From assembly GCF_011745625.1 (NCBI RefSeq), contig NW_027191456.1, positions 992,001-1,056,000 on the forward strand: DNA of 64,000 bases, given 5' to 3'. This document shows, in pieces, positions 2-64,000 of this stretch. The first letter of the stretch is position 1; every line of letters starts with the position of its first letter. The stretch comes from Cladosporium halotolerans. Taxonomy: Eukaryota. Position numbers and translations under genes: made by a program. The notes under the pieces were generated by a model. It was given only the letters and a program-made list of their open reading frames with translations. It was not told where the DNA came from and searched no databases.

Positions 2-1063
2 GACAAGAAACTGTACAAGAACATCGAAGATGCACTGGAATCGCAGTATGCGACTCTCGTCCAGCTGTCTGCGTCGCTTAGTCCGCCTCCCGAGATCAGC
101 AAGCGCAATGATAAGCATAGAGATTCCACTGCAAGCGCTCAAGATTATGGAAGAAATGAGAGGAAGCGCAGTCGCACGGTTGAGATCCCGGAGATTGATC
201 TCTCCCGAGCGTCCCCCTTCGGACCCCTGAGTCAAGTGTCGTCCAGGCGCACGTTTGCGTATCTGATTGCAACCCTCAATGCAAGTCACTCTGACTACGA
301 CTTCTCGCACCTTCTACGACCCTCAGACTTCCAGAAGGAGCGTTCCCTCCGTGCCCTTGTGCACAACGTCGACTCGACGCTCTACAACTTGCGCCCCCGT
401 CACAGCAGCCTGGTTGCGAACCAGCAATACCTTGCACCGCCGAACCTCTCCAGCTCAGCTCCCGTGTCTAATGGTCTCGGCAATGAGGTATGGGGCCCTA
501 GGATGTGGTCTCTCATTGACAAGGAGATGAACCTCCGCGAATGCGAGAGATACAGCTACATGCCTCAGGACGACCCATTTGACGGCGAGGAGGGCGCAAT
601 ATGGAGTCTGCACTACTTCTTCTTCAACAAGGAGCGCAAGCGCGTCTGCTATCTCTATCTTCGCGGTCTCAGCGTGCTTTCGCACTCGCCTGTCCATGCG
701 CCCATGCACATTCACCGAACTCGCCAAAGCCGCGATTCTGGCGTCTCCGTCGGTGAAGGTGCCGGCAAGCGAGCAGATTACTGGCTCGGCTCAAGCATCG
801 ATGAAAATATCATGGATGAGGGCGAGTACGAGGATGACGACGATGAGATCATCCACGACGAGTATGAGCACCAGGACGACGAAGTTGAAGTCCCCTACAT
901 GGACCTGGACGAAGTGAGAAACCGCATTGTCGACGGCTACAACTACGATTTTGAGGAGATTGAATACGAAGAAGATACCTCCTCCTGGGCTGTCGACAAC
1001 GGGACGAAGACGAGAGGCGTAAGAGGCATGAGCGAGGAGATTGGCGATGCGATGGAGATATGA
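2..1063 (+). CDS. MAF1: Maf1, repressor of RNA polymerase III transcription (5' end lies outside the window)
   Basis: Frame open from base 2: DKKLYKNIE...SPFGPLSQVSSRRTFAYLIATLNASHSDYDFS, then DPF..GAIWSLHYFFFNKERKRVCYL, and an acidic C-terminal tail typical of Maf1. Confidence 0.93.
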   Translation, partial: DKKLYKNIEDALESQYATLVQLSASLSPPPEISKRNDKHRDSTASAQDYGRNERKRSRTVEIPEIDLSRASPFGPLSQVSSRRTFAYLIATLNASHSDYDFSHLLRPSDFQKERSLRALVHNVDSTLYNLRPRHSSLVANQQYLAPPNLSSSAPVSNGLGNEVWGPRMWSLIDKEMNLRECERYSYMPQDDPFDGEEGAIWSLHYFFFNKERKRVCYLYLRGLSVLSHSPVHAPMHIHRTRQSRDSGVSVGEGAGKRADYWLGSSIDENIMDEGEYEDDDDEIIHDEYEHQDDEVEVPYMDLDEVRNRIVDGYNYDFEEIEYEEDTSSWAVDNGTKTRGVRGMSEEIGDAMEI

Positions 1064-1887
1064 GCATCCATCAACCTCTCAACACGTGCATCTTCCGGTG
1101 AGACGGCAAATGCGCTTTTCAACTACCAGCCCGAACCATCCGTCACTTCGCCGCAATGGCAAATCGCCATCTGTTCAGCAAACCAAGGAAAACACACTTC
1201 ACTTACTCATGCTCCATACCCCCTGGGAGCACTCGACCCGCAAACAGCAACGACTTTCACTTTCGTCCTTTGGCGTTACACGGTCGTCTTTTCAGCGCGC
1301 GCGTAAGGGGTGGCAAGTTTTGGGATAAAGCACGCGATGATACCAGCTGGGTGTTCGGTGTTTTACTGTACGTGTATTTTCGGCGCATTGGGATCACGGA
1401 TGGTTTGCTCTTTCAAGACACTTCTGTTGTCTGTCTCTGTCTTCTTTTCGTATGCAGCAGAATGTGGAGGAGAGCGTAACCCAGCCGGTGTAGCGTGTCA
1501 GTCATGAGATTCTGCAAATAATGAATTCAATGTCAATTACTTCAACTTTTCGCTGGATGACCGCGCTCTGACGGACTCATTATTCTAATTGTTCCATTTT
1601 TGCTCTATCGCCAACAATATCATGATCTTGCAAGGTCCCTGTATTCGAGAACACTGTCTCCTGTTGGCGACCGTCTTGTCTACTGCACGGAATTCGACAT
1701 TTAATAGGGCGATATCCAGTACGCTCGATGTCCACTACTATCAACACCACCAGATCATAAAGTTCATCAAATGCCAAAAACGCCAACCAGTGCGCGGACC
1801 AAATCCATCAAATCGGTCTCACAGCCCTCAAATCGGCTGTCCGGCAACCTGCAAATCAAAATCGTCAGCACAAACCCCCTTCATCGT

Positions 1888-3815
1888 TCAATCAATGAAC
1901 TCCTCCCACAGCGAACTCACCTTGAACGGATGCGCCTCCGTGTTGTAAACCCACTCGTTCTTGCCCACGCCCTCCACGCCGCCAACCTGCCACTCCGCCG
2001 CGGGGTCCGCGTGGATCAGGTACGCGTACTTGAGCACTTCGGCGAAGAAGAAGGACTCCTGGAAGTTGCTGAAGGAGCCGCCGTTGGCGGCGTTCACGTT
2101 CGTCACGCTGCTGTACCCGCTGCCGACGCGCGTGATGTCGGCTACCGCGCGGAAGCCGGCGTAGGACCACTGTTGGACATCTGTTAGCGAGCTGTTGGTC
2201 GGTCGTAGGGAAGGCGAGGGACTGGGAGGGACGTACGTCCTGGTACTTCCTGTCGCCCGTCGCGCGCCACGCGTAGTAGAAGCTCTCCAGCACCTCCGGG
2301 CGCAGCTGGTAGCCGGCGCTGGTGATGTAGAAGCCTGCTTCCTCGTAGAACTCACGCTGGTCGGCCGGCACGCGGCGCGAGTCCCAGCCGAAGCCCTCGG
2401 GCCCGATGCCCGTCAGCGTGCTGTTGTACGTGGCTTCGCAGCCGGCGACGAGCTCGAGGCCGAAGTCGATGTAGCGCTGCGAGCCGAGCACGAGGCCGCC
2501 GAGAATGAAGTTGCCGCCGTCGAAGCAGGCTAGGTGGCCAGACGAGAGGCTGAGGGTGCGGTTATTGTAGGCCGCGAGGAAGGTTAGGTCTGGGCGGCTG
2601 GCGGGGTGCGAGGCGAGGTGGTCGATGGAGCTGTCGGCTGCGAGGATCCAGCTGGGAGGCGTGAGTGGTTGAAACGGGTCATGAGGATTGTGTGGCTTAC
2701 CGGTCTTTGTACCCGTCGAAGCGAGAGGTGTCGTAAACGTACATCTAAAATTGAGGGTCAGTGGTGCTCGAGAGATTGCGATTGTGCCGTATCTAACCTT
2801 GATGAGGTACTCGTAGAACGAGTCGGTGCCGCCATTCCATCCGCCAGAGGCATCGACGAAACGACCAGAGTTGATATCAATATTGGTGCCTACGAGGCCT
2901 GGCCATGGCTCGGACGAAGCAGGCTGGGGGCTAAGAAGGTAGCCCTCGGCTTTCTGGGTGAGCTGGGCGTAGGTCTCATTTCCAGTCAAGTCGGACAAGC
3001 GAGTCCATTCGAGCACCAGGGTGCCGGCGGTGGCCAGGCCGTTAGTGCGCGATCCGTCATTGCCGCGGTTGCTGAAGATGAGGTTGTTGTGCGGAATGCC
3101 GGAAGGAGTCTCGAAAGCGTAGCTCATGTTGTTCGCCAGGTTCACTGCTTGGTCCAGAAGCGCGTCGACTTTGCTTGACTGGATCGCTTCATCAGCATAC
3201 CGAACAGCAAACCATAAACAGCATTGACAATTGCTTGGTACTCACATCGTCCACCATATCCGCCAATGGGCCCTTGAGCAAATCGTAGCCCGACAACAAA
3301 CCCGCCACGTATCTGATCGTGGTTTCGAACAAGCTGACAGGTTCATCGTTTGCGCTCACACTCCAGTCGATATCAGGCACATAGTCCACGATCTGGTTGA
3401 CGATTTCCGGAATCTGCATGACCAGAGCAGTCGATAGAGCGTCGATTGCGGAAGCACCCCAGCCATTGCTAGATTGCCATCAGTCATGACTATACTTCTC
3501 TAGTCAGAGATTCGTCTAGCGAAACTCACCGAGAGTTTCCAAAAGTGTTGTCGACGGGATACAGCTCGTCGTTCGGGAAAGCGTATCTGCGCCATGTCAA
3601 TCAGCCTGTCGTTCTTTACATCGATCCTCCGATACCTTCAACCAAACATACTTGTAATATCCATCCCAAGCCGTCTGGAAAACATCCTGCACCTCATCCG
3701 CTCTCTTCCTCGCCTCGTCTGCCGAAACTCCCCTCTCGTCGAGTCTCCTCGCCGGCAGCGCCAAAGCGCTCTGCGCCGCCAGCGAAGTGGTCGCTGCAAT
3801 TAGCGTATAACGCAT
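1888..3815 (-). CDS. Secreted class I alpha-1,2-mannosidase (GH47, MsdS-like), about 6 introns
   Basis: Signal peptide [19 protein letters not shown] from ATG at 3815. GH47 motifs [50 protein letters not shown] and YNTEAHP are spread over several ORF fragments separated by GT..AG introns. Confidence 0.93.
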
Positions 3816-49302: not shown

Positions 49303-50814
49303 ATGCCGCCTTACAAGAAGCGAAAGCTCTCAAACGAGGCCACCGAGCCTGCGAGCCTGCAAAAGAAGAAGGCCACCAAGGACTCGAGACCTGCAAAGAC
49401 CGCACCAACGCCAAAAGCAGCGCAGCCGGAACCCGCAGACGATGGCGAGAACAGTTCAGACGATGCGGAAGAGCAGGTTGAGGATGAGGGTGCAGGAGAA
49501 GACGTCGCCGAAGCCGACGCCGAAGGAGAAAAGACATTTGCCGACTTGGGCTTGACAGAGTCCCTTTGCGACGCCTGCACAACGCTGGGCTTCAAGAAAC
49601 CCACACCGATCCAGCGAGAGTCACTACCTGTAGCACTCTCCGGCAAGGATCTGATCGGACTGGCTGAGACGGGATCTGGAAAGACTGCTGCGTTCGCCCT
49701 GCCCATGCTGCAAGCATTGCTGGACAAACCACAACCTCTGTTCGGCCTTGTCATTGCACCCACGCGCGAGTTGGCGTACCAGATCAGCCAACAGTTTGAA
49801 GCCCTCGGCAGCCTGATCAACGTGAAATGCGCAGTCCTTGTCGGAGGCATGGACATGGTGCCCCAAGCGATCGCCCTTGGCAAACGCCCTCATATCGTCG
49901 TCGCCACGCCCGGCCGTCTCCTGGACCACTTGGAAAACACCAAGGGCTTCTCCCTCCGCCAGCTCAAATACCTAGTCATGGACGAAGCCGACCGTCTCCT
50001 CGACCTCGACTTCGGCCCCATCCTCGACAAGATCCTGCGCGTCCTCCCTTTCGAGCGCCACACGATGCTTTTCTCCGCAACAATGAACACCAAGCTCGAC
50101 AACCTCACGCGCGCCGCCCTCCGCAACCCGACCCGCGTCAACATCTCCTCCTCCTCGTACCAGACCGTCAAGAACCTCGTGCAGAACTACCTCTTCATCC
50201 CCCACAAGTACAAGGACATCTACCTCGTCTCGCTCCTGCACTCCTTCGCCGGCCAGACCGCCATCATCTTCACCCGCACCGTCAACGAAGCCGCCCGCAT
50301 CGCCTTCCTCCTCCGCGCCCTCGGCCGCAGCGCCATCCCCCTCCACGGCCAGATGAACCAGTCCGCGCGCCTCGGCGCCCTGAACAAGTTCCGCACCGGC
50401 GGCAAAGAGATCCTCGTCGCGACGGACGTCGCCGCCCGCGGCCTCGACATCCCCTCCGTCGATCTGGTGCTCAACTTCGACCTCCCGCCCGACAGCAAGA
50501 CGTACGTGCACCGCGTCGGCCGCACGGCGCGCGCGGGCAAGAGCGGCGTGGCCATCAGCATCGTGACGCAGTATGACATCGAGATTTTCCAGCGCATCGA
50601 GAAGGCGCTGGGCAAGAAGCTGGAGGAGTTCGCGACGGAGCGCGACGAGGTGATGGTTTTTGCGCAGAGGGTGGGCGAGGCGCAGAGGGTTGCCGTGCAG
50701 GAGATGAAGGCTATGCACGAGGGGAAGAAGGGCGGGAGCAAAGGCAAGGGCATCAGCGGTGGGCGAGCGAAGAAGGGCGGGAGGAGGGAGAATATGGATG
50801 CTGAGGAGGGTTGA
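49303..50814 (+). CDS. RRP3: DEAD-box rRNA helicase Rrp3
   Basis: [64 protein letters not shown]. Confidence 0.93.
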
Positions 50815-51717: not shown

Positions 51718-53472
51718 TCACAATTCCTCGTCATCATCCACCGTCGTGTGGTTTCCGTGCCCATTGCTCGTCTGAGGCTGAGGTGCGGCCGAAGGTGGAG
51801 CCACATTATTCGGTGCAGAGATCATGCTGTCTAAGCCAGAGACGCTTGATCTCTGCTTCTTAAACGGAGAGCCGACCGCGTCGGATGCGTCAGCGCCGCT
51901 CAACGGTTTGCCTTCGAGAGGTGGAGTGCCTGCAGTAGCAGTCGTGGATCCAGCAGATTGCGGTGTACCTCCGGGGGGTGTGTCGTTCGTGTAAACGTGA
52001 GGCGACTTCTTGGTTGTCTCTGACATTGGTTCCGCAGAGTGCTGGCGCTTGAGCTGGGAGGGGTGTCAGTGATAGATGAACTCATAGCGTTGCAATCAAC
52101 CAACCTTGATCTTTTGCACGCCGTCCGCAATCTCGCCCTGCCGTCTGGCGTCCTCTGGAGACAACATCTTGCCGTTTTCCTGCTTCACCTCGGTGTCATC
52201 GTCTTGGTCCATGCCTTGCTCATCGTCGTTGTCCTCGACATCACTATCCATGGCATCGTCGTTCGACGTCTTGCCCTTTGCCCTCTTCTTCGAGCTAGCA
52301 TTATCACGGTAGCCAGAGAAGCCCACTGTGCCAAATTTGTTGAGGGGTCCGAGATTGGAGAAGTCTGGTCCTGATGACTTGCGCTTTGCGCTGGCAGGTG
52401 TCTTTTCAGCCTCAGGCACCTCCAGTATGCCCATTTTACGAAGCTGCTTCTCACCACGGTAGAAGAAAGTGAACACCGCGTAAGGCGCTTCGGGAGGATC
52501 GAGTCCGGTGACCGTCTGAGTGCTGATCGATTTCGGGTCGAGGGATTTGGGCTTTGCGAAAGATGTTGTGTGATCGACATCCTCGTCGCCAGCTCCGTTC
52601 GTACCTCCATTCTGATCCGTGCCCTCATCGTCGTCGTGAGCGTCAAACTGCGGTGAGTACTCTCCTTTCTTAATTTCGCCGCTCGCAAGCACGCGGAAGA
52701 GTGCGACCTTGATTTGACCCGCAGCTTCCGGCATTGGTGGTTCGTCGTCTGAATCCGAATCAGAAGAAAGGTTAGGATCTTCCTGCATGATTTCCTCGCC
52801 ATCGTCATCCTCCCGTTTGATCTTGACGTCCTCCTCGTCACTGTCGAAACGCTCGGATTTCAGCCGTCGCTTTTTCTCGAGCTTCCGCTGTCTCTTCTGT
52901 ATCCGTGCGGCCTTGTCTTTGCTGCCCTCGAGATCCAGACCATTGAGCCATCGCTCCAATCCAACCTCTCTGAACAAGAACTCGCGCTCAGCAAGACCGC
53001 CGCCCTCTGACTCCGGAACGCTAACCCATCTTGAGTTAACCCAAGTCTCCTCACCGCGGCGCAGCAATGTGGCAACCTCCTCTTTCGGTCGTCCGTCAAA
53101 GTAAATGTACGCAGCGATCGTCTCGTTAGGACTGGTCGTCTGCGGCACGTAAGGAGGAACGACCGACTCATACCGACCCCGCTGGCTCGTCTGTCCAGGC
53201 AAACCGCCGACCATACGCGACCTGGGAAACGGGTTGTCTGGCGTGGCGTCGGGCGCCGAGTAGGGGACGTTCAGGCCGGGCGTGAGCAGGGTTATGGAAA
53301 TGGCGAAGTTTGGCTGCTCGAGGCGGGAGGAGTCGGCGTCCTTGACGAGCTTCGCGGGCGGCACGGCGATGTAGGAGGATATGCGCGACTGCCGGGTCTG
53401 CCTCTGGGTGGAGATTTCTTTCAACGGGCCATCCGAGTGGATGCTGACCGCAAGGCCCTTGAAGCAAGGCAT
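51718..53472 (-). CDS. Fungal hypothetical protein; one intron near 52050-52104
   Basis: 458-aa ORF MPCFKGLAVSIH..ETIAAYIYFDGR..EREFLFREVGLERWL..VFTFFYR splices (GTTGGT..CTGAC..CAG) into LKRQHSAEPMSETT..DDDEEL*. Confidence 0.8.
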
Positions 53473-54235
53473 CTTGCGGCCTGTGGCGGTGTAGCAGCGG
53501 CGCTGTGTGGTGGTGGAGGGCGTACGCGAGGGGAGGAGGGAGGAGCGCGCGCGGTCGGCGGGAGAATAGCAGCAATTCCAGACGAAGGCACCAGAAGGGC
53601 GAGCGAGGCGTCAGGCGCGACACGCACTGGGACGTGTGTCTCGTGTGTTTCTTTTGCCGGGCTTCACGTGCTCTGGCGGCGGTGGGAGGCCCGCGCAGCA
53701 AGCTCAGGCGCCAGGGTGCAACTGAGGGGGAGCCGCAGGCAAGTGGCGGGTGTCGAGGGCTGAGGGTGAGACACTGTGTGCGTGCGCCGCTTTGGGGATG
53801 CTCGAATGCTCAGGCGGTGAGGAGGGGAGAAAAGGACGAGACGGCCGAAAAGCTGCTCGCCGCACGCCTGACTCGAACGCGGCGCTCTGCTGTGTCGCTT
53901 TGCGTGGTGGGGGCCGTTTGTCGTCTGTGTTGTCGACACCGACCGCAGCCCGGCGAGGCACAGCAAACAGGCCCCGCCTTGATTGGCTGTCGGGCCCCGT
54001 CACCGCGTAGGGCAGCCCTCGTGGTCGCTCCAGTCAACGGACTCGAGTGGCACCAACAAACACCACTACAGCGTTTCCCTCGCACACGGCAAACACTTGG
54101 GCGTAGCCATCCGTTATATTTCCTGATTCCCTGCCTTGTGCATGAACTTCCATCGATGGCTTGAGACCCTTCCTTTCCCCGGTTCCCGCTCCCTTGCGAT
54201 CGCCATCACTCGGCCATCAAATCGAACCAGTCACA

Positions 54236-55259
54236 ATGTCAAAACGGAACCTCCTGATTTGCTTCGATGCCTTTGGCACTCTGTTCACACCTAGAAAGCC
54301 CGTTGCCCAGCAATACATGGAAGTCGGAAAATCGTTCGGATTGGCTGGGTTTACAGAAGACGACATTGCCAAGTCGTTCAAATCCGGTATGCGATCGATA
54401 ACTCGTTTCACAAGACTCGACTTATAAATTACTGACAAGGCTACCACCGAAGCATTCAAACAAGAGTCCAAGCAAAATTCCAACTACGGCAAAGCCACCG
54501 GTCTCGGCGCTGAAAAATGGTGGAGTAATGTATGCCGTCTAACTGTGCATTTGATCATCGAGCTTATCGCTGATCGATCCTAAGATCATTCACAACACTT
54601 TCAAGCCATACTACGGGCCTAGCGAGCAACCTCCCGCAAACCTCATCCCAGCACTCATCCATCGATTTCATTCCGAGGAGGGTTACGCCCTCTACCCGGA
54701 TGTCCTTCCTCTACTCAACAAGCTACGTCCAGATGACCGGACGACATACGGCGGAAATGTGATTATAGGCGTGATAACAAACTCAGACAACAGGACAGCA
54801 GACATCCTGACTTCTCTGGGCTTGCATGTGCATCCGTTGCACTATGGCCAGCCCTACAAACGAGGTGGCATGAGGCCGCGATACGACATTGATTTCACCG
54901 TCCTTTCATACGATGTTGGCCATGAGAAGCCCGATCAGCGGATCTTCGCCGCAGCAGAAGAGGTGTTAGGCACTCTCATGCACTCCACAGACGCAGACAC
55001 AAAGACACCAGCGGAGTTTCACCCGGAGCGATGGAGGAAGGTCTACGTTGGAGACGAGTACGCCAAGGATGTGATTGGTGCCACAAATGCTGGATGGAAC
55101 GCTGTGCTGATTGATCGCGAGTCTGGCGAGAGGCAGCCTGACGTTGAGTATCTTGACAACAAGCAGCCTGCTTCTCTATGGGATGTGTTTGAGAAGACCA
55201 AAGCTGTGGGCTTCAGCAGCCTCGAGAATCTCTCTAAATGGATCCCTTCAAGATCGTGA
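54236..55259 (+). CDS. HAD-superfamily hydrolase (REG-2/HDHD3-like); introns 54387-54452 and 54530-54584
   Basis: Motif I CFDAFGTL, II GVITNSD, III EKPD..IF, IV YVGD..KD..GA..AGW. Confidence 0.88.
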
Positions 55260-55349: not shown

Positions 55350-56097
55350 CTACGCCACCACCGGCCTCGCTTTCCGCAGCATCGCCGTCACCGCCGCAGC
55401 GCCATCGAGCATCGACTTTTCTCCTATCACCTCGAATCCGGCGTTCAGATACAGCTTCTTCCCCGCCGGCGAGGCCTCGAGATAGATATCTTGGCCAGCA
55501 GCATCAGCGAGCTCGCAGTCCTTTTCCAGCAGCCGCTTTCCGATTCCTTTGCCTTGACGGTCCGGATGCACGACCATAGATACCACGTCTACGAGAGTGG
55601 TCAGTTAGTCCGTATGCCACACTTCGGCCAAGATAGATCAAGCATCATGAGCAAAAAGAAACAGATCCAGATCCCAAAAGAAAGCCAAAAGACTCACACC
55701 AATAATCCTGCCTCTCTCCCATACACTCCTTCCTCACCTTCTCCATAGCCTCGTGCCACTCCCTCATAAACTCCCCATTGAATATCTCCGGCTCCGCCTC
55801 CTGCACCTCTCCATTCGCCTCTCCCTCTCCCTCCTCAGGCCCCGGCGCCTGCACCCCCGTGCACCCAACCACCTCCCCCGTCTCCGCGTCCACGGCTTTG
55901 AACCAAGTGCCCCCCGGTTTTGCCATACGCCGCTCGTTCCGCCGGATGCGCCACTGCAGGTATTCTTCGTGCTGCGCGGGCGTTCCGTTGGGTTTTGCGA
56001 GGCGGGCGTTGAAGACGTCGTTGGCGAAGGCGAGCACGCCGATGGGCGTTATGGTGGCGGCCTCGGTAGGGAGGGCGGGGAGGATTGTTATGGACAT
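55350..56097 (-). CDS. GNAT-family N-acetyltransferase; 1 intron
   Basis: WFKAVDAETGEVVG; acetyl-CoA motif VHPDRQGKGIGKRLL; YLEASPAGKKLY..GF. Confidence 0.87.
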
Positions 56098-56624
56098 TTT
56101 TGAGCTTTGAGATTTTTTTTGTCGGTGATTATGGGCGATCGTGTTGCTGGGTGAAGGAATTAAGATATATGGGAGTGTGTCGAAAGATACGTGGGCAGGT
56201 GAATTGAGAGAAGGGGAAAGTTGGCTTGCCTTCACGTATACACATTGAGCGTACTTATACTTGATCTGTGACTAAACGCCAGACTGGTAAAGACTCCAGC
56301 TGAAGCTGAAGTTGTTGCCTAGCCAAAACCGACCTAAACCGGCGCAGTTGTTTATCGCGACGTTGCGATTGATCCTTTCCGAGCACCTTCCCCATTTGAA
56401 GCCGAAGCCGGCGTTCGGCGCTCGGGACGGAATTCAGCGGTCTCTTTTTGATCAATGCAATCAGGCATCACATTTTCTTTTGTATGCCGTGATTCAAGTC
56501 CTCGTTATTCGGAATTGCAATCTCTCAGTAATTGAACACGCGCCTGCCCGAAAGCCGATCACTCCAGGGAATATAAGCCTTTGGAAATCTGGCATGACGC
56601 GCAAATGGCTCGCCAGCTCCGCGA

Positions 56625-58319
56625 CTACAAGTACTCCTTCGCCTCAAGACCAGGCGACTTCGCATACTGGCTCTTAATCACATCCTTGTCCGCCTTCTCA
56701 ACCACCTTCGCAAACTTCTCCCCGCTCTTCGGATCGTGCTGGAACAGGTGGTCCTGCACCAGGCGCCGCGGCGTCTCGCCCATCCACTGGAAGAGCGAGA
56801 AGTCCTGGAACTCGTCTAGGAAGCGATGGGTTAGCTGACTGGCGTTGGTGCTTAGCAAGGGGAGTGGCTTCTTACCTGCGCGGAAGATCTCCAGCACCTC
56901 GAGCGGCTCGTCGTCGCTGAGGTTCTCGATGAAGTGGCCCATGTTGCGCGGCACAATGCCGACGTCGCCTGCCATGTAATCGAAGGTTCGCGCGTTGCCC
57001 TCGGCTGCGAAGATCGTCACGCGCGCGCGGCCTTTGATGAAGTAGGACCTGGTGACGTCTGTTAGTACCGCTCTGGGTGCGATCTGCTGATTGCGAGCTG
57101 CTACGTACCACTCGTCGGCGTTCGGGTGCCAGTGCATCTCGCGCATCGCGCCGGGCTCGATGTCCAGGTGCCCTGCGGCGATGGTCTTGGAAATCGGGAA
57201 GTTCTTGCTGTCGACGATGCGCGCTTTACCGCCGCTGCCTTCGACAGGCGGGGTGTCGAGCATGCGGTGGGTGTATTGGTGCTTCGACTTCTTGAACGCT
57301 GGGGGCTTCTCCTTGTCGATGCTGTCGGGGATGGAGCCTGCAGGTATCTTCGAGTTAGCGATTTGATTGCTGCAGGTGCTTTGTCTGGAGGGTCGACGGC
57401 ACTGACCTTGGAAGATGTACTTGTCCTTCTCGTGGATGTTCTCGAAGATCTCCGGGGGCAGACGGAAGTTCTCTGCCACGACCGCCTTGGGAGTGTGCTC
57501 GATCCACTCGTTAAGCAGGAACGTGGAGTCCTCAGAGAAGTTGCCGTCGTCGAAGATGAGGAGGAATTCAGTTCCGTTCTCGCCCAGGCCTTGGAGCGAG
57601 TGCGGGTGTCCTGAGGGGAAGTACCACAAATCGCCCTCTTTGAGGTCGTCGATGAAGGAACCGCCTTCAGTGTCGAGAGCTGTGACGCGAACCTCGCCTG
57701 TAGAATGTTAGTCTCCGGCTGCGAGTTTGAAAGGACCCATCGAGCTCACCCTTTAGAACGTAGGCCCACTCAGCTTCTTTGTGCCAGTGAAGCTCGCGAA
57801 TGACGCCGGGCTCCAAGCGCATGTTCACGCCGGCAATCTCAACCGAAGCCGGAAGCTCGCGGACGGTGGTCTGTCTCGTCCACCCGCCTTCCTCAATACG
57901 AATGTGTGAGTCGGAGAAGCTCCTGTTGACGGTCAATGGGTGATGCTCTAGGAAGATGCAACCATGCTACACTGTACCATCGCAGGTTTGGCAGAATGCC
58001 GTGATCAGTGCTAGGAGGACGAACGAGATCTGGGTTCTGACGATCTCTGTCCTTGTTGGTAGGGCCTAGCACACTGGTGCCGTGGCCGTTGCGCTGATGC
58101 ATGTCAGTGTTGTGAAGCTACATTGTGGCTCTGAACAAAACCTACGACAGGCAATGGCTGAACGCCGTCGCCATAAGTGTCATGCTTACGGTCGTACGGG
58201 TCGTATCTGTACGGATAGTGGGCAGAAGTGTCTTTCTCAAGTGGTTGCTGGTCGACAGGTGCCGCTGAGCAGCTAGATAGCAGCAATGCTGCTGACAGCA
58301 ACAGGTTGGAGTTGTACAT
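56625..58319 (-). CDS. oxdC: Secreted oxalate decarboxylase (Mn bicupin); about 6 introns
   Basis: Signal peptide [34 protein letters not shown]; cupin 1 [12 protein letters not shown] / [13 protein letters not shown]; lid FSEDSTF; cupin 2 [13 protein letters not shown] / ARTFDY / GHFIEN. Confidence 0.93.
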
Positions 58320-60109
58320 CGCTGCGACTTCACTTCAATGCGATCACAGTCTCAATGCACAGCCAAACGGTCGACGAGTGTATGAGCAACAGAAGCAAAG
58401 CTCAATGGGTTGGAGGTGATTGCAAAATGTAGCTACCATGACGCGAGCGAGTGCCGAGGCGCGTACTGACATCACTTCCAAAACACCAAGACCCAGGGTG
58501 CTTTCACTTGCAGACGGTACAGCGCCCGCTTTAGCCGTGGCCAGCTTCGCCAGGGCCTTGATTGTACGCTCAGCACGTGAGGCGGCACAATCCGCCAGGG
58601 CGCGTACTGTCAGCCGTGCGAGCCGCATTTCGGGACCAGATACCGCAGGCACCCATCATTCGCATCAAAACAAGCAAGTCGGGCATCGGACAGGCGGATA
58701 TTGCGGGTATGAGGTCAAGACATCTTGGAGCCGCAGCTCTCCTGGACGAAGCTTCGCCCTGGCTGGCTTCCCCGCACGCCTCCCTGTCGGCCACCACCAA
58801 GCTCACCCAAGCAGCCGCTAGGAGTGGAGAACTCCCCCGCCACGCGATCTTGCTAGTGAAAGTGCATGTCTCTGGGGCTTGACCACGGACGAGTTCACGC
58901 GAGAAGGCTTGACAGCCACTGACTTCCACAGCACGCGAATGCCACGATAGCCGCCGTGCCCGGCGCATCCGCATGGTTGTCTAGAACCGGGACCTCAGAG
59001 CGCCGCCATTGCCGCCACCAGTGGGCCTAGACAGCGACAGGAGACCGCCGCTGCATCCGCAGCACCTACGGCGGACGTCGCCATGGCCGAGACGACCTTC
59101 CACTCTAGCGGATGGTATCGGCTCTGGCGGACTTGACCGTGCTATCAGGCCGCAAAGGCCGACGAGGAAATGTCGGAATCCGCGGAATCGCTTTTGCTTT
59201 CATTCTACTATATGAGCCGGGCAATCTCGCAACACCGTGAACGCTCGGATTCTGTCTTCGCCACGTCTTCACCACGAGACATCGACTTCGAGCTTCAATG
59301 ACAAGTGACTCTCGGGCTTGGCTCCAATTTGAGGCGCCTTATCACCTGTCGAGTCGCTTCGGACCCTCCCCTACCCCTCAGTGCGAGACGAATGCATGCT
59401 ATCATGGCACACTTATGCTTGACCTGAGCCTCCGTCAAGCTCTTTCTGAAGAGTGAACGAGCTGTCACCCAAAGTGATACATCTCCGCAGCACCCGCAGC
59501 ACCCAAGGTCTTGTCGACCTGCCAATTGCATCCAAGGCAGGTAGCTGTGACCACTAATCATGTCACAAATGCGTTCACGAACAGCTGCGGGGTACCTCTT
59601 ACGGTAGCACGCGACTTCGTAAGCCGTAGTGGCAACCTATGGCTGGAGCACGTTCGCGCCATTTGGAGTCATTCCCGCGCTGACCCCTGCCACGAAGAAG
59701 CTCTTGACCTTATTCCCTCCAGTGACACGATTCAAAATCATGCGTTGATGATGAGGGCACTTTTGCAGGTCGCGAAATCGATCAATCACTGAGCATGAGC
59801 TGAAGTGCCGATGTAGCTGATAGACACGGCGCCCAAAGCTTGTTGCTCTAGTCACGGCACGCGAACCGTACGCTTGCAGGACAGGTACGTACTCTTGTTG
59901 CTCTGCATGTAACAATGTACCTGCAGGCGCTCAATCAGAGCCGTTCGAGGCGGCTGGTGCTTGAACCATAGTATCCTCACTAAGCGACATATCTGAGGCT
60001 GGCCATATCATGTCTTACAAGCCCAAAGGTCAACCCTTCGGTTTCGACATATGAGTGACTGCAATCACCAAGTTCCCTCTGTAACCACTTCAAAAGATCT
60101 GCTTTCACC

Positions 60110-62292
60110 ATGAAGGTCGTCGATCAGGCGATCAACGACGTCCGCACGGATTATACTTGGAACCGCGCCGGTCGTCTTGCCAAACGCGGATTGAGAGCAA
60201 CACCGACGACGGCTGCTCACTACATTATCGACAAAGCTCCCATCGTCGGATGGCTGCCTCGATACAATCCAAGATGGATCATCAACGATGTTATTGCAGG
60301 GCTGACCATTGGGTACGAAGTCATTTCCGTACGTCGCTGACATTTGCTGACCAACGACGCAGGTTGATGTTGATCCCTCAGAGCTTGTCATATGCTAAGA
60401 TCGCTACGATTCCTGTCGAGTATGGGTTGATGTCCAGCTGGCTGCCACCAACCCTTTACGCAATCATGGGATCCACCAAAGGTCAGTGAGACCAACACTT
60501 TCAAGCGAGCATTTGCTGAACGTCTCAAGACCTGTCCACCGGACCGACCTCTCTGTTGGGTTTGACTACTGCCGAAGTCGTCCACGATTTTACGGCAGAC
60601 GGATACGCCCCAGAACAGATTTCATCAGCTGTGGCCATGTGCATCGGGTTCTACGGCATCATCGTAGGATTCCTCAATCTTGGGTTCCTCCTTGAATTCA
60701 TCTCTCTACCCATTCTGAGTGGTTTCATCTCCGCCGTTGCAATTGTCATTGGACTCGGCCAGATTCCCTCTTTACTCGGAGAAGAAGGAGGTAGCGATGC
60801 TACTGCTGGCAAAATCCACGATATGTTCGCTCAACTACCCGACGCAAATGGATACGCTTGTGGTATCGGCTTCGGGGGCCTCGTCTTCTTGACCATACTC
60901 GAGAAAGCCGGCAAGCGATGGGGCGAAAAGTACAAGGCCGTCTGGCTTCTGTCCATCACTCGCGCCTTCTTGTGCTTGGTCCTCTTCACGGGTATTAGCT
61001 ACGCGGTCAACGGAAAATACGGCAAAGACGATGACAGCTACTTGTTCGAAGTTGTAAAAGTCTCAGGCAAGGGCATTGTCACTCCCAAGGCGCCGCCTGG
61101 CCCCTTGATCTCGAAGGCTTTCCCCCGCAGCATTGCTGCCTTCATTGGTCCAGTCCTTGAGCATATCGCCATCGCCCGAGCTTTCGGTGTGAAGAACAAC
61201 TACGTCAGCGACCAAACACAGGAACTATGCTACTTCGGCGTCACGAACGCAATCAACTCTTTGTTCCATGTAATGGGAGTCGGCGGAGCCATGTCCAGGA
61301 CCTCAGTAAACTCGGCCTGCAAGGTCAAATCACCGCTTTCCGGTATCGTCACGACGGCAGTCATTCTCGTCTGTATCTTCAAGTTGACGGACGTCCTCTA
61401 CTGGATCCCGAAGGCCACACTCGCTGCGATTATCATCTCAGCCGTCTGGCCTCTAATCAACCCGCCATCGACGTTCTATAAATATTGGAAGACATCCTTG
61501 GCCGACTTCATCTCCTCCATGCTCGCATTCTGGGTGTGCCTCTTCGTTAACACCGAAGCTGGCCTTGGTGCAGCGGTCGGTTTCAACATCGTCTACGTCC
61601 TGTTACGTCAAACCTTCACCCGTGTCAAGTCCATCTCCAGCAGCGATGGCAAAGAAATCGCCGAGCTCCAACAGAGCACCGACTCACCACACATCACCCC
61701 AAACACCATCCCGGACGACGTCCGTATCTTCAAATTCCACGAATCCTTCTTCTTCCCCAACGCCTACGGCGTCAAAACCTCCATCCTCAACACCATCAAA
61801 ACCCACCACTCGCCCGCCTACAGCAACCGCCACGGCGCCGAGGCCGAGCGCATCTGGTCCGTCCAGGGCGAGCGCCAGGTCGCCCGCCTGCGCAAGAAAA
61901 TGCACATCACCGACCCCGACAGCCTGCCCCCGCTCAACGTCGTCGTCTTCGACTTCGCCCGCTGCAACCACTTCGACGTCACGGCTGTCACGCAGTTCCG
62001 CCAGCTCGTTGCGGAGATGCGGCTGTACTGCGGTAAGCAGCTTGAGATTCGCATCGCGGGCATGTCGGAGTATGTCCGTACGAGGATGTGGCGCGCGGGG
62101 TTTGAGGTTGTCGACGAGGAGGCTGTGATTAGGGGGGATGTGGAAGCGAGCGGTGCGCCCATGCATTTTGCGAGTTTGGCGAGGGCACTCACGGCGCCGA
62201 GGGGTAGTGCGGAGGGGAGTTTGAAGGAGCGGTTTGATGAGAAGAAGGGGGATGCAGTGGAGAGGGTGGAGGACGTTGAGGAGAAGGTTTGA
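60110..62292 (+). CDS. SulP/SLC26 anion transporter with C-terminal STAS domain; introns 60313-60362 and 60482-60529
   Basis: PIVGWLPRY..DVIAGLTIG|LMLIPQSLSYA, GSTK|DLSTGP, ISLPILSGF, EHIAIARAF, QEL, GAMSRTSVN, IPKATLAAII, STAS VVFDF..FDVTA. Confidence 0.92.
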
Positions 62293-63058
62293 GTCGACTG
62301 TAGGGTGTGATTTGGGGCTTCCATTGCAATGGCCTTGTCTCTTTTTTGGAGTTTTATTCGATGGTAGCTACGTTCATGGCTTATGTTTGCATTGAGAAAA
62401 ATATGACGGCAGATTTGAAGTTGAATGTCGTCCTGATGTGTTCTCAACTCATCTCATCTGAGTCCCCTAAGATACTCACATTGTTCTCAGGCATTACTGA
62501 ACGCATTAACATAGACATCCACGATTTTCCGACTTCTGCACCAATGTTGTCCTCGATCATTAGCAGGCTACAACGCAATCTCTGAATGATTGATGCCAGT
62601 GACACTTCGATTTAGCCGAGGTCAGCTCAAAAGCAATTGATACTGCACGCGTGCAAGGTGTCGTCGGTATCGATGCAGCTGAAACCTTCTGTAGGGCAAT
62701 ATTCCCCGCCCGCCACGCGATATGAAACGTGCATTAGCAGTGCATAACCACGGATTGGCGATCTGCAATCGGCAAGTGCGGCACGCTTTTACGGTTTGAG
62801 GGGAGGAGGAGCAGCCTCGGTTCCCTCGATAGCCGCAATCCCCGTCATATCCGTTCAGCTGGATCAATGGCTCCTCTACTCGATTTCACGATCTTCGAAG
62901 GAGCGATATGAGGGGTTAGATTGAGGGGCACAGGTTTGTCAGGCCGTCTCGCTTCAATTCACCGCATCAACCGCACTCGCCGGACTAGCCGTGCAAGTTC
63001 CTGGATTCACAACCACTTGCCTGCGTCCGTCTCGCAATCAGGGCGAAGAACCATTACC

Positions 63059-63952
63059 ATGTCGTCGCAGAACGGTTACAACACCCTCGCGCAAAATGGC
63101 TATGCTCCGAACGATGTAGACGCCGAAGGTGCGGCTCTACTTAGAAAACCTTCTGATCGAAATGGTGGCGAGACATCGCTGACTACTCGCCTGACCACCC
63201 ATTTCACCAACAACGTCAGCAAATCATGGGCAGACATTGCTCTGCTCGGTTGCTACATCATCACCGGGCTGCTAGATAGCAGCAGCGTGTTCATCTGGGG
63301 AAGTTTCGTGAGCATGCAAACTGGTAAGACCACCATCGTCCACATCCAAAACCGCCTCTAATGACAACCAGGCAACACCGTCTACCTGGGCCTAGGCATT
63401 GTAGCACCCCACGACAACGACCGCTGGATCCGTTCTGGCATCTCTATCGCGTTCTTCTGTCTCGGCAGCCTCTTCTTCAGCTTCTACCACCGCGCACTCT
63501 CACCTCGCAAGCGCTGGGTCCTCGTCTCGTCACATCTCATCCAACTGGCCCTAGTCATCGCCGCCGCGCTCATGGTCACGTTTGGCCCGCATACGAGCAA
63601 GGAAACGCCTTTCAATATCTTCATCGGCGCACCCATCGCTCTGATCGCTTTCCAGGCTGCCGGACAGGCTGTCACATCTCGCGTGCTGCAATTTAATGGA
63701 CTCACGAGCGTAGTCTTGACTTCGATCTACTGCGATCTGTTCTCTGATCCGGGACTCGTGGCGGGTTTTCAGGCGAATCCGGAGCGAAACCGGAGGGCTG
63801 CGGCGCCGGTGCTGTTGCTTTTGGGCGCGGTCTTGGGAGGCTTGTGGGCGCATAGTAGTGTTGGGTTGGCCGGGGCGCTTTGGACGGCGGTGGTTCTGAA
63901 GGCGGGTGTTGTCGGGGCTTGGGTGCTTTGGGCGGCTGAGGAGAAGTCGTGA
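63059..63952 (+). CDS. DUF1275 (YoaK-like) multi-pass membrane protein; intron 63324-63371
   Basis: ITGLLD..FVSMQTG|NTVYLGLG signature, AFQAAGQ, TSVVLTS, RNRR..LLLGAVLGG; about 6 TM segments. Confidence 0.85.
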
Positions 63953-64000
63953 GGCTAGTCGTTGATCTGTCTCGTGTCCAGACCACGGTTCTGGACGATT

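Follow-up and report, generated by a model that had tools for sequence, protein, structure and literature searches.

An oxalate decarboxylase gene and a DUF1275 membrane protein gene form a conserved divergent pair in ascomycetes, with an SLC26-type transporter gene as an optional neighbour in Cladosporium

Do three neighbouring genes of the fungus Cladosporium halotolerans, encoding an oxalate decarboxylase (OxdC), an anion transporter of the SLC26/SulP family (hereafter SulP) and a DUF1275 membrane protein, form a module for handling oxalate, and, if so, which of the membrane proteins would be the carrier? The genes lie towards the end of a 64,000-nucleotide stretch of contig NW_027191456.1 (positions 992,001 to 1,056,000 of the forward strand; assembly GCF_011745625.1), referred to here as the window, and an initial annotation had proposed that all three act together, with SulP exchanging oxalate or oxalate and formate. 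The gene identities assigned at that stage agree with the Pfam matches (Table 1), and the gene models bear out the layout: OxdC and SulP are arranged head-to-head with 1,790 bp between their ATG codons, in line with the original estimate of about 1.8 kb, and DUF1275 follows SulP on the same strand, with 766 bp separating the SulP stop codon from the DUF1275 ATG. The nine modelled introns (six in OxdC, two in SulP and one in DUF1275) are all of the GT..AG type and 48-69 nt long. Because RNA contigs of runs X8, X2 and X7, which represent three studies, carry all nine splice joints, the gene models hold, and transcription and splicing are established for each of the three genes. Run X8 is true RNA-seq and runs X2 and X7 behave as RNA; a further run, X6, contains none of the nine modelled joints, resembles DNA of a relative and is uninformative on expression. 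Exon 2 of DUF1275 is 88% identical to the C. allicinum sequence, and the main exon of SulP is 75% identical to that of C. fusiforme.

The answer to the question begins with gene order. Metagenome contigs were scanned with an alignment of 18 DUF1275 orthologues, and the best 80 loci were kept and searched with the three window proteins. Upstream sequence of 2.5 kb or more is available for 25 loci, and in 22 of these it contains OxdC in the orientation opposite to DUF1275. Clustering at 90% identity yielded 51 lineages, including 27 with the pair, three without it and 21 represented by contigs that are too short, so that OxdC is divergently upstream of DUF1275 in 27 of the 30 informative lineages. 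The two genes are separated by 299-1376 bp, a distance raised to about 4.8 kb by SulP when it is placed between them. The named sequences that match the loci best come from Cladosporium, Teratosphaeriaceae, Pleosporales, Chaetothyriales (Exophiala/Cladophialophora), Penicillium and Xylariaceae, and the pair-bearing lineages resemble Dothideomycetes, Eurotiomycetes and Sordariomycetes. The numbering of locus tags makes OxdC and DUF1275 direct neighbours in four named genomes, those of Meristemomyces frigidus (LTR85_010707/010708), Saxophila tyrrhenica (LTR77_002813/002814), Zasmidium cellare (PRZ48_011721/011722) and Paraconiothyrium brasiliense (SLS60_005895/005894), and seven more OxdC and DUF1275 protein pairs are attributed to contigs of equal size. 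The adjacency is not unique to C. halotolerans, and for OxdC and DUF1275 it is beyond chance.

The pair is, moreover, a conserved island in otherwise scrambled surroundings. When the 26 loci with 9 kb or more of sequence are compared, just three families, DUF1275 (26 loci), OxdC (23) and SulP (9), are common beyond close relatives; as in metabolic clusters, adjacency is conserved beyond the background synteny, the flanks being not conserved. In the maximum-likelihood tree of DUF1275 segments, which is divided into two well-supported halves (99/97), linked loci are found throughout both. Since the three unlinked loci nest among the linked ones, they are best read as secondary separations and not as an old paralogue. 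Literature searches on OxdC gene clusters, and on OxdC-DUF1275 or OxdC-sulfate permease pairings in fungi, turned up no such module; the arrangement of an enzyme beside a carrier is known in kind, whereas the candidate carrier family, DUF1275, is uncharacterised. We consider it highly probable that OxdC and DUF1275 are functionally linked. With somewhat more conviction than doubt, we favour the reading in which the functional unit is the divergent pair, with DUF1275 as an oxalate or formate carrier and SulP as an optional addition.

The position of SulP bears on this choice. Of the three-gene module proposed initially, the link between DUF1275 and OxdC stands, whereas SulP is not a core component: when long flanks are required (7 kb or more upstream, 3 kb or more downstream), 13 lineages remain, of which eight carry the pair without SulP, four have a SulP gene and one (L022) has neither OxdC nor SulP. 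The window and four Cladosporium-like loci (L001, L002, L004 and L007) are the only cases with SulP inserted between the two genes, and in named genomes of the Teratosphaeriaceae type (Saxophila, Vermiconidia and Neophaeotheca), the SulP orthologue is on a different contig from DUF1275. The orthologues are 54-99% identical among the matches listed. Two further layouts bring SLC26-type genes next to the pair. In L033, whose SulP is 72-73% identical to Coniochaeta proteins, DUF1275 is closely followed by the SulP orthologue in the same orientation. In the Xylariaceae-like loci L047, L048, L067/L068 and L078/L079, a different SLC26 gene is found downstream of OxdC; none of the 120 SulP matches shares more than 51% identity with this paralogue, and its best match in the Protein Data Bank (PDB) is SLC26A11 (1.3e-38). 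Three layouts and two SLC26 subfamilies beside the pair would be hard to ascribe to chance, given the small size of the family. SulP can be regarded as a recurrent but optional partner, its place between the two genes being confined to Cladosporium, and whether it is a working member of the unit even there appears doubtful.

A Fusarium culmorum gene model, P0068, matches PF06912, PF00916 and PF01740, with the N-terminus of DUF1275 merged with a SulP orthologue. It was rejected as a true SulP-DUF1275 fusion, and looks like a merged model because about 100 unrelated residues join its parts; such a model would imply an L033-like gene order in this species.

The RNA contigs also show how the genes are spaced in the window. 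The 1.8 kb between OxdC and SulP is mostly SulP 5' leader, about 1.1 kb long once spliced: a SulP-side contig of run X2 covers positions 58836-59886 and then joins position 60027, just upstream of the SulP ATG, the joint (59882 to 60027) being found in X2 only. RNA contigs on the OxdC side stop near 58400, and the bin 58403-58669 has zero RNA depth in X8, X2 and X7. Because RNA contigs occupy 58836-59886 and are spliced to 60027, we infer that the untranscribed divergent promoter measures only about 430 bp, an estimate that carries the limit that contigs cannot reveal true RNA ends. Four open reading frames (ORFs) of the stretch 58836-60109 match no Pfam family, and the ORFs tried in a search for a hidden gene in the OxdC-SulP gap, and in the gap between the SulP paralogue and OxdC of L067, match none either. 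Even among the Cladosporium-like loci, the leader is poorly conserved (about 120 bp at 72% identity). Its features, the 21 upstream ATGs included, suggest translational control or a separate non-coding transcript.

Another X2 contig, of 4,000 nt (60027-64000), extends over SulP, the spacer of 766 bp and DUF1275 and lacks the three introns of the two genes. A contig over two genes does not show a single transcript, and this one may reflect read-through, a bicistronic RNA or overlapping transcripts merged by the assembler. It is also a hint that the shared promoter may still serve DUF1275.

What type of transporter is SulP? The protein has the architecture of the SLC26/SulP family, with a PF00916 membrane domain and a C-terminal PF01740 STAS domain. 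Its best PDB relative is 9nf7, a 'probable sulfate permease' (1.4e-56), followed by prestin, SLC26A11 (9iar, 2.6e-32) and AtSULTR4;1 (7lhv, 1.2e-30), with SLC26A6 (8opq) at 5.2e-29; some of its relatives are labelled 'sodium-independent sulfate anion transporter 11' or 'sulfate transporter 4.1'. The glutamate of transmembrane helix 8 (TM8) is present, the window motif LEHIAI aligning with LESVGI of 7lhv, LESIAV of 9iar and LEHIAI of 9nf7, and the Ser-Arg motif of TM10 (MSRTSVN) aligns with FSRSAVN. AtSULTR4;1 and SLC26A11 share the architecture and both features with SulP, although their similarity to it is only modest and neither has a known link to an oxalate decarboxylase.

According to the AtSULTR4;1 study (PMC8298490), H+-driven transport depends on the TM8 glutamate (Glu347 of AtSULTR4;1), SLC26A11 is the sole human SLC26 isoform with an acidic residue at this position, and no residue pattern predicts the anion selectivity of SLC26 proteins. 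In the same study, oxalate nearly abolished the uptake of sulfate by AtSULTR4;1, an H+-coupled vacuolar exporter. SLC26A11 has been reported to be a lysosomal sulfate transporter. SLC26A6, the mammalian exchanger of oxalate, formate and chloride, belongs to the same family, but by the statement on human isoforms (PMC8298490) it lacks the acidic TM8 residue, which the window SulP has. SulP is probably an H+-coupled symporter of the SULTR4/SLC26A11 type, and its pocket may well accept oxalate. The SLC26A6-like oxalate/formate exchange suggested by the initial annotation now appears the less likely mechanism because SulP keeps the TM8 glutamate of the H+-coupled carriers. Among its structural relatives, 9nf7 is far ahead of SLC26A6. 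The substrate itself is unreadable from the sequence, since residue patterns do not predict selectivity (PMC8298490).

These results bear on the strongest competitor of the favoured reading, namely, that all three genes constitute one module in which SulP is the key carrier of oxalate or of oxalate and formate. The three layouts with SLC26-type genes beside the pair, the single spliced RNA contig that covers SulP and DUF1275, and the near abolition of sulfate uptake by oxalate in the related AtSULTR4;1 (PMC8298490) all lend it some credit. Nevertheless, we judge it unlikely, given that most long-flank lineages with the pair do without SulP, that the SulP orthologue is on a different contig in the Teratosphaeriaceae-type genomes, that the closest structure is a probable sulfate permease and not SLC26A6, that the TM8 glutamate marks H+ symporters and not the mammalian exchangers, and that, according to the same study, anion selectivity is unpredictable from residues.

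Returning to the OxdC-DUF1275 pair, we asked how far the association extends into bacteria. Eighty prokaryote loci around OxdC were collected and their 3,600 ORFs were searched by phmmer with two bacterial DUF1275 proteins. A Pfam scan covered 96 references from loci L081-L127 (95 ORFs with at least four hydrophobic segments and one L120 stretch), and the other 86 membrane ORFs, of L127-L160, were covered by phmmer only; a hidden Markov model built from the fungal DUF1275 alignment found only L120 among the bacterial ORFs and, being too insensitive, was replaced. DUF1275 was detected in three of the 80 loci, from Acidobacteriales (L090), Solirubrobacteraceae (L120) and Rummeliibacillus (L132), and is single-copy in each of these genomes. 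In the Acidobacteriales locus, the GTG start codon of DUF1275 overlaps the OxdC stop codon by 4 nt, and this OxdC has no signal peptide. Such a layout is the pattern expected of a membrane protein that would serve an enzyme of the cytoplasm by bringing its substrate or removing its product. A Bacillus spizizenii genome, picked for the closeness of yoaK and yoaN and hence a biased choice, has its single copy of DUF1275 at a distance of 5.8 kb from the second, OxdD-like, OxdC paralogue; the Bacillus genes are near each other but non-adjacent, whereas the fungal pair is adjacent.

A DUF1275 gene has also been described beside other genes of oxalate catabolism. The published account of the Acetobacter aceti region uctB-oxc-uctC-duf1275 (DQ668372; PMC3720670) places it next to oxalate-catabolic genes, as in the fungal pair, although the A. 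aceti pathway is bacterial and CoA-dependent, whereas the fungal pair uses OxdC. This case is not general because neither of the two genomes with a true oxc, out of 61 Acetobacteraceae genomes sampled (30 of them with DUF1275), has DUF1275 near oxc; a general DUF1275-oxc linkage in the Acetobacteraceae was rejected accordingly.

Other genes were found next to the bacterial OxdC. Four Methylobacterium/Beijerinckiaceae loci carry a gene for a transporter of the 14-TMS type of the major facilitator superfamily (MFS; MFS_1 with a weak TRI12 match), in the same orientation as OxdC and 0.6-2 kb downstream of it (L094, 11649-13178; L095, 12789-14366; L098, 13145-14713; L099, 12880-14331), which may represent a different transporter solution for OxdC. 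In L120, genes for cytochrome bd oxidase subunits I and II (21-3039) are directly upstream of OxdC-DUF1275. A gene for a YrvL-family membrane regulator directly follows the Bacillus OxdC in L093 (11208-11627), L096 (11210-11626) and L118 (11203-11592), which we take to be the known oxdC-yvrL arrangement.

We next consider what the DUF1275 protein could be. Its exon 2 matches PF06912 with 110.2 bits (cut-off 25.4), and this is the only family matched by the window protein at E <= 0.01, with no match to MFS_1 or SNARE-assoc; the family is broad, comprising 390 representative clusters at E <= 0.001. For the orthologue from C. allicinum (88% identity), AlphaFold2 produced, from 40 aligned sequences, two of them bacterial, a model with a pLDDT of 82 and a pTM of 0.78. 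In VIA-align, residues 52-280 of the model matched one six-helix half of an MFS protein in all 50 rows shown, with Z scores of 13.6-9.8, where helical bundles can reach about 13 by chance. The match to OxlT (8hpj; Z 12.4, rmsd 3.6 over 170 residues, 14% identity) is tied with many others. The structural match supports, but does not prove, the placement of DUF1275 (9.B.143) within the MFS superfamily that is given by TCDB (PMC8154325). An Arg (Arg192) that is invariant in fungal and bacterial members alike also counts in favour of a carrier.

Comparison with established or proposed oxalate carriers brings out both parallels and differences. The gene for OxlT, the oxalate:formate antiporter of Oxalobacter formigenes, lies beside oxc/frc in that organism. 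As proposed here for DUF1275, OxlT combines an MFS-type fold with a carrier gene coupled to oxalate decarboxylation, but it is a single chain of 12 helices, whereas DUF1275 has six and would have to dimerise, and its partners are enzymes of the CoA pathway, whereas that of DUF1275 is the Mn bicupin OxdC. The oxalate efflux protein FpOAR of Fomitopsis palustris is likewise a fungal membrane protein concerned with oxalate handling and a proposed secondary transporter (PMC10576180). The suggestion, in the initial annotation, that FpOAR is DUF1275-like is not supported by the literature, and a relationship of this kind was rejected. According to the AtOT study (PMC10003554), it was the homology of AtOT to FpOAR (BAJ10704.1) that led to its identification, AtOT has a SNARE-assoc domain, and a figure legend has FpOAR, HbOT1, HbOT2 and AtOT aligned with this domain marked; the FpOAR family is, by this description, related to SNARE-assoc (DedA-like) proteins, whereas the window protein matches PF06912 only.

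The N-terminal tail of the fungal DUF1275 proteins is variable except for an invariant E-x-x-x-L-L motif (window positions about 63125-63142), which resembles an acidic dileucine sorting signal. Because of this resemblance, we tentatively place the fungal protein in an endosomal, vacuolar or vesicle membrane.

The enzyme of the pair appears, from its alignments, to be a genuine bicupin oxalate decarboxylase. Its closest PDB structure is Bacillus subtilis OxdC (1j58, 1.2e-81), with both barrels aligned, and Cupin_1 matches it in three stretches, in addition to Cupin_2. The HWH..E stretches of both domains, which we take to hold Mn, are identical to those of B. subtilis OxdC in the alignment. 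In the lid, FSEDSTF is aligned with FSENSTF of 1j58, and the glutamate that is kept is the proton donor by which decarboxylases are told apart from oxidases. Oxalate decarboxylases of this type depend on Mn and need acid pH. The B. subtilis OxdC and OxdD are bicupins as well, and the former aligns with the window OxdC over the Mn-motif stretches and the lid glutamate; the window enzyme differs from B. subtilis OxdC by about 60 extra N-terminal residues, which start with M-Y-N-S-N and a Leu/Ala/Ser-rich stretch resembling, by eye, a signal peptide.

Taken together, we propose that the conserved unit is a divergent pair, in which an OxdC of the secretory pathway and a DUF1275 membrane protein would share a short promoter region. 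DUF1275 would be a six-helix 'half-MFS' protein that pairs up into a small anion carrier, moving oxalate to OxdC or formate away from it, and the fungal protein would reside at the working place of the secreted OxdC, either in the membrane of an acidic compartment or on the cell surface. In Cladosporium, a probably H+-coupled, SLC26A11/SULTR4-like SulP has come to lie between the two genes as an optional third member. For transport of oxalate or formate as the function of DUF1275 taken by itself, we see the chances as evenly balanced.

Several observations weigh against this proposal. Three lineages have DUF1275 without OxdC and beside unrelated genes, 77 of the 80 bacterial OxdC loci have no DUF1275 within 10 kb, and the two oxc-bearing Acetobacteraceae genomes do not link it to oxc either. 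Neither SulP-DUF1275 nor OxdC-DUF1275 fusions are present among the best 150 representatives, the longest of which has 476 aa. A Foldseek search with the DUF1275 model against the PDB gave no match at E <= 0.001 (best 0.029, with weak top rows that are almost all MFS proteins), and the VIA-align scores are at the level attained by helical bundles by chance. The fungal OxdC appears to be secreted, with no obvious need for an importer. No 6-, 7- or 8-mer in the 26 intergenic regions rose above the best of 30 shuffles, in a crude test that used mononucleotide shuffles and took alignment ends as region borders, and contig depth cannot rank the genes or show co-regulation. Finally, the papers found to mention DUF1275 together with oxalate do not include a test of its function.

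Given that synteny shows a link and not a substrate, DUF1275 could serve OxdC otherwise, by supplying Mn2+ to the secretory pathway, by moving bicarbonate or protons, or by sensing. An OxdC with a secretory signal, being a Mn enzyme, would have to be loaded with metal in a membrane-bound compartment. However, the DUF1275 residues that are invariant from fungi to bacteria, including T88-G89-N90 and Arg192, include an Arg, but a His/Asp/Glu cluster of the kind usual in metal sites is missing from them; the overlap of DUF1275 with an OxdC devoid of a signal peptide in L090 fits the traffic of substrate or product across the cell membrane better; and the A. aceti neighbours (PMC3720670) are CoA-pathway enzymes that need oxalate, not Mn. 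We consider this explanation improbable. Least probable of all is that unrelated genes are kept together solely by a hard-to-split bidirectional promoter, with SulP placed by accident, which would agree with the missing common motif in the intergenic regions, the three lineages with separated genes and the many bacterial OxdC genes that have no DUF1275 neighbour, but not with the survival of the adjacency in lineages resembling three fungal classes in which all other neighbours have changed, and a fungal promoter constraint is insufficient because three bacteria, each with a single DUF1275 gene, likewise have it near OxdC, though oriented differently.

The favoured reading, with the divergent pair as the unit and DUF1275 as the carrier, can be extended into an evolutionary scenario, which we put forward as conjecture, with the balance tilted slightly against it. 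DUF1275 proteins would be a hitherto unrecognised family of half-size MFS carriers of oxalate and/or formate that became partners of OxdC before the main ascomycete classes split and, independently, in some bacteria. The fungal DUF1275 would load oxalate into an acidic vesicle or vacuole housing OxdC, and an SLC26A11-like H+ symporter, recruited in some lineages, would retrieve the anionic product.

Table 1. Coordinates of the OxdC, SulP and DUF1275 genes and of the intervening segments in the window
Feature	Position	Strand	Details
OxdC bicupin	CDS 56625-58319	-	7 exons, 448 aa; Cupin_1 1.6e-28 and Cupin_2 (Pfam)
OxdC exons	58319-58146, 58093-57978, 57922-57750, 57697-57407, 57337-57109, 57048-56876, 56815-56625	-	gene model
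Short divergent promoter (putative)	about 58403-58835	.	between the OxdC and SulP transcripts; contig-based inference
SulP 5' leader	58836-60109	+	144-nt GT..AG intron (about 59883-60026); 21 upstream ATGs
SLC26/SulP (SLC26A11-/SULTR4-like)	CDS 60110-62292	+	3 exons, 694 aa; Sulfate_transp 4.6e-61, STAS 3.7e-07
SulP exons	60110-60312, 60363-60481, 60530-62292	+	gene model
SulP-DUF1275 spacer	62293-63058	+	unbroken cover by one spliced RNA contig
DUF1275 (UPF0700/YoaK, TCDB 9.B.143)	CDS 63059-63952	+	2 exons, 281 aa; PF06912 1.4e-31
DUF1275 exons	63059-63323, 63372-63952	+	gene model

Two other genes, upstream neighbours of OxdC, precede the locus in the window, neither of their families being conserved beside the pair elsewhere: a HAD-like hydrolase gene with an intron (54146-55259, plus strand) and an intron-containing GNAT acetyltransferase gene (55350-56271, minus strand). 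The window segments 50000-50499 and 53000-53999 have an unusually high G+C content of 0.62-0.67, compared to about 0.52-0.58 nearby, and contain long overlapping frames on both strands.

The secretion and breakdown of oxalate matter in plant-pathogenic, wood-decaying, lichen and industrial fungi, and, to our knowledge, no oxalate transporter has been established in ascomycetes. In M. oryzae, for instance, two oxalate transporters, Mooxt1/2 (MGG_09838 and MGG_15133), are only 'predicted' (PMC11776485). DUF1275 is a good and cheaply testable candidate for the missing fungal carrier of oxalate or formate, and the SLC26A11-like clade of fungal SulP proteins may comprise something other than plain sulfate importers. 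If the proposed role is true, it would be the first function for DUF1275, a widespread domain.

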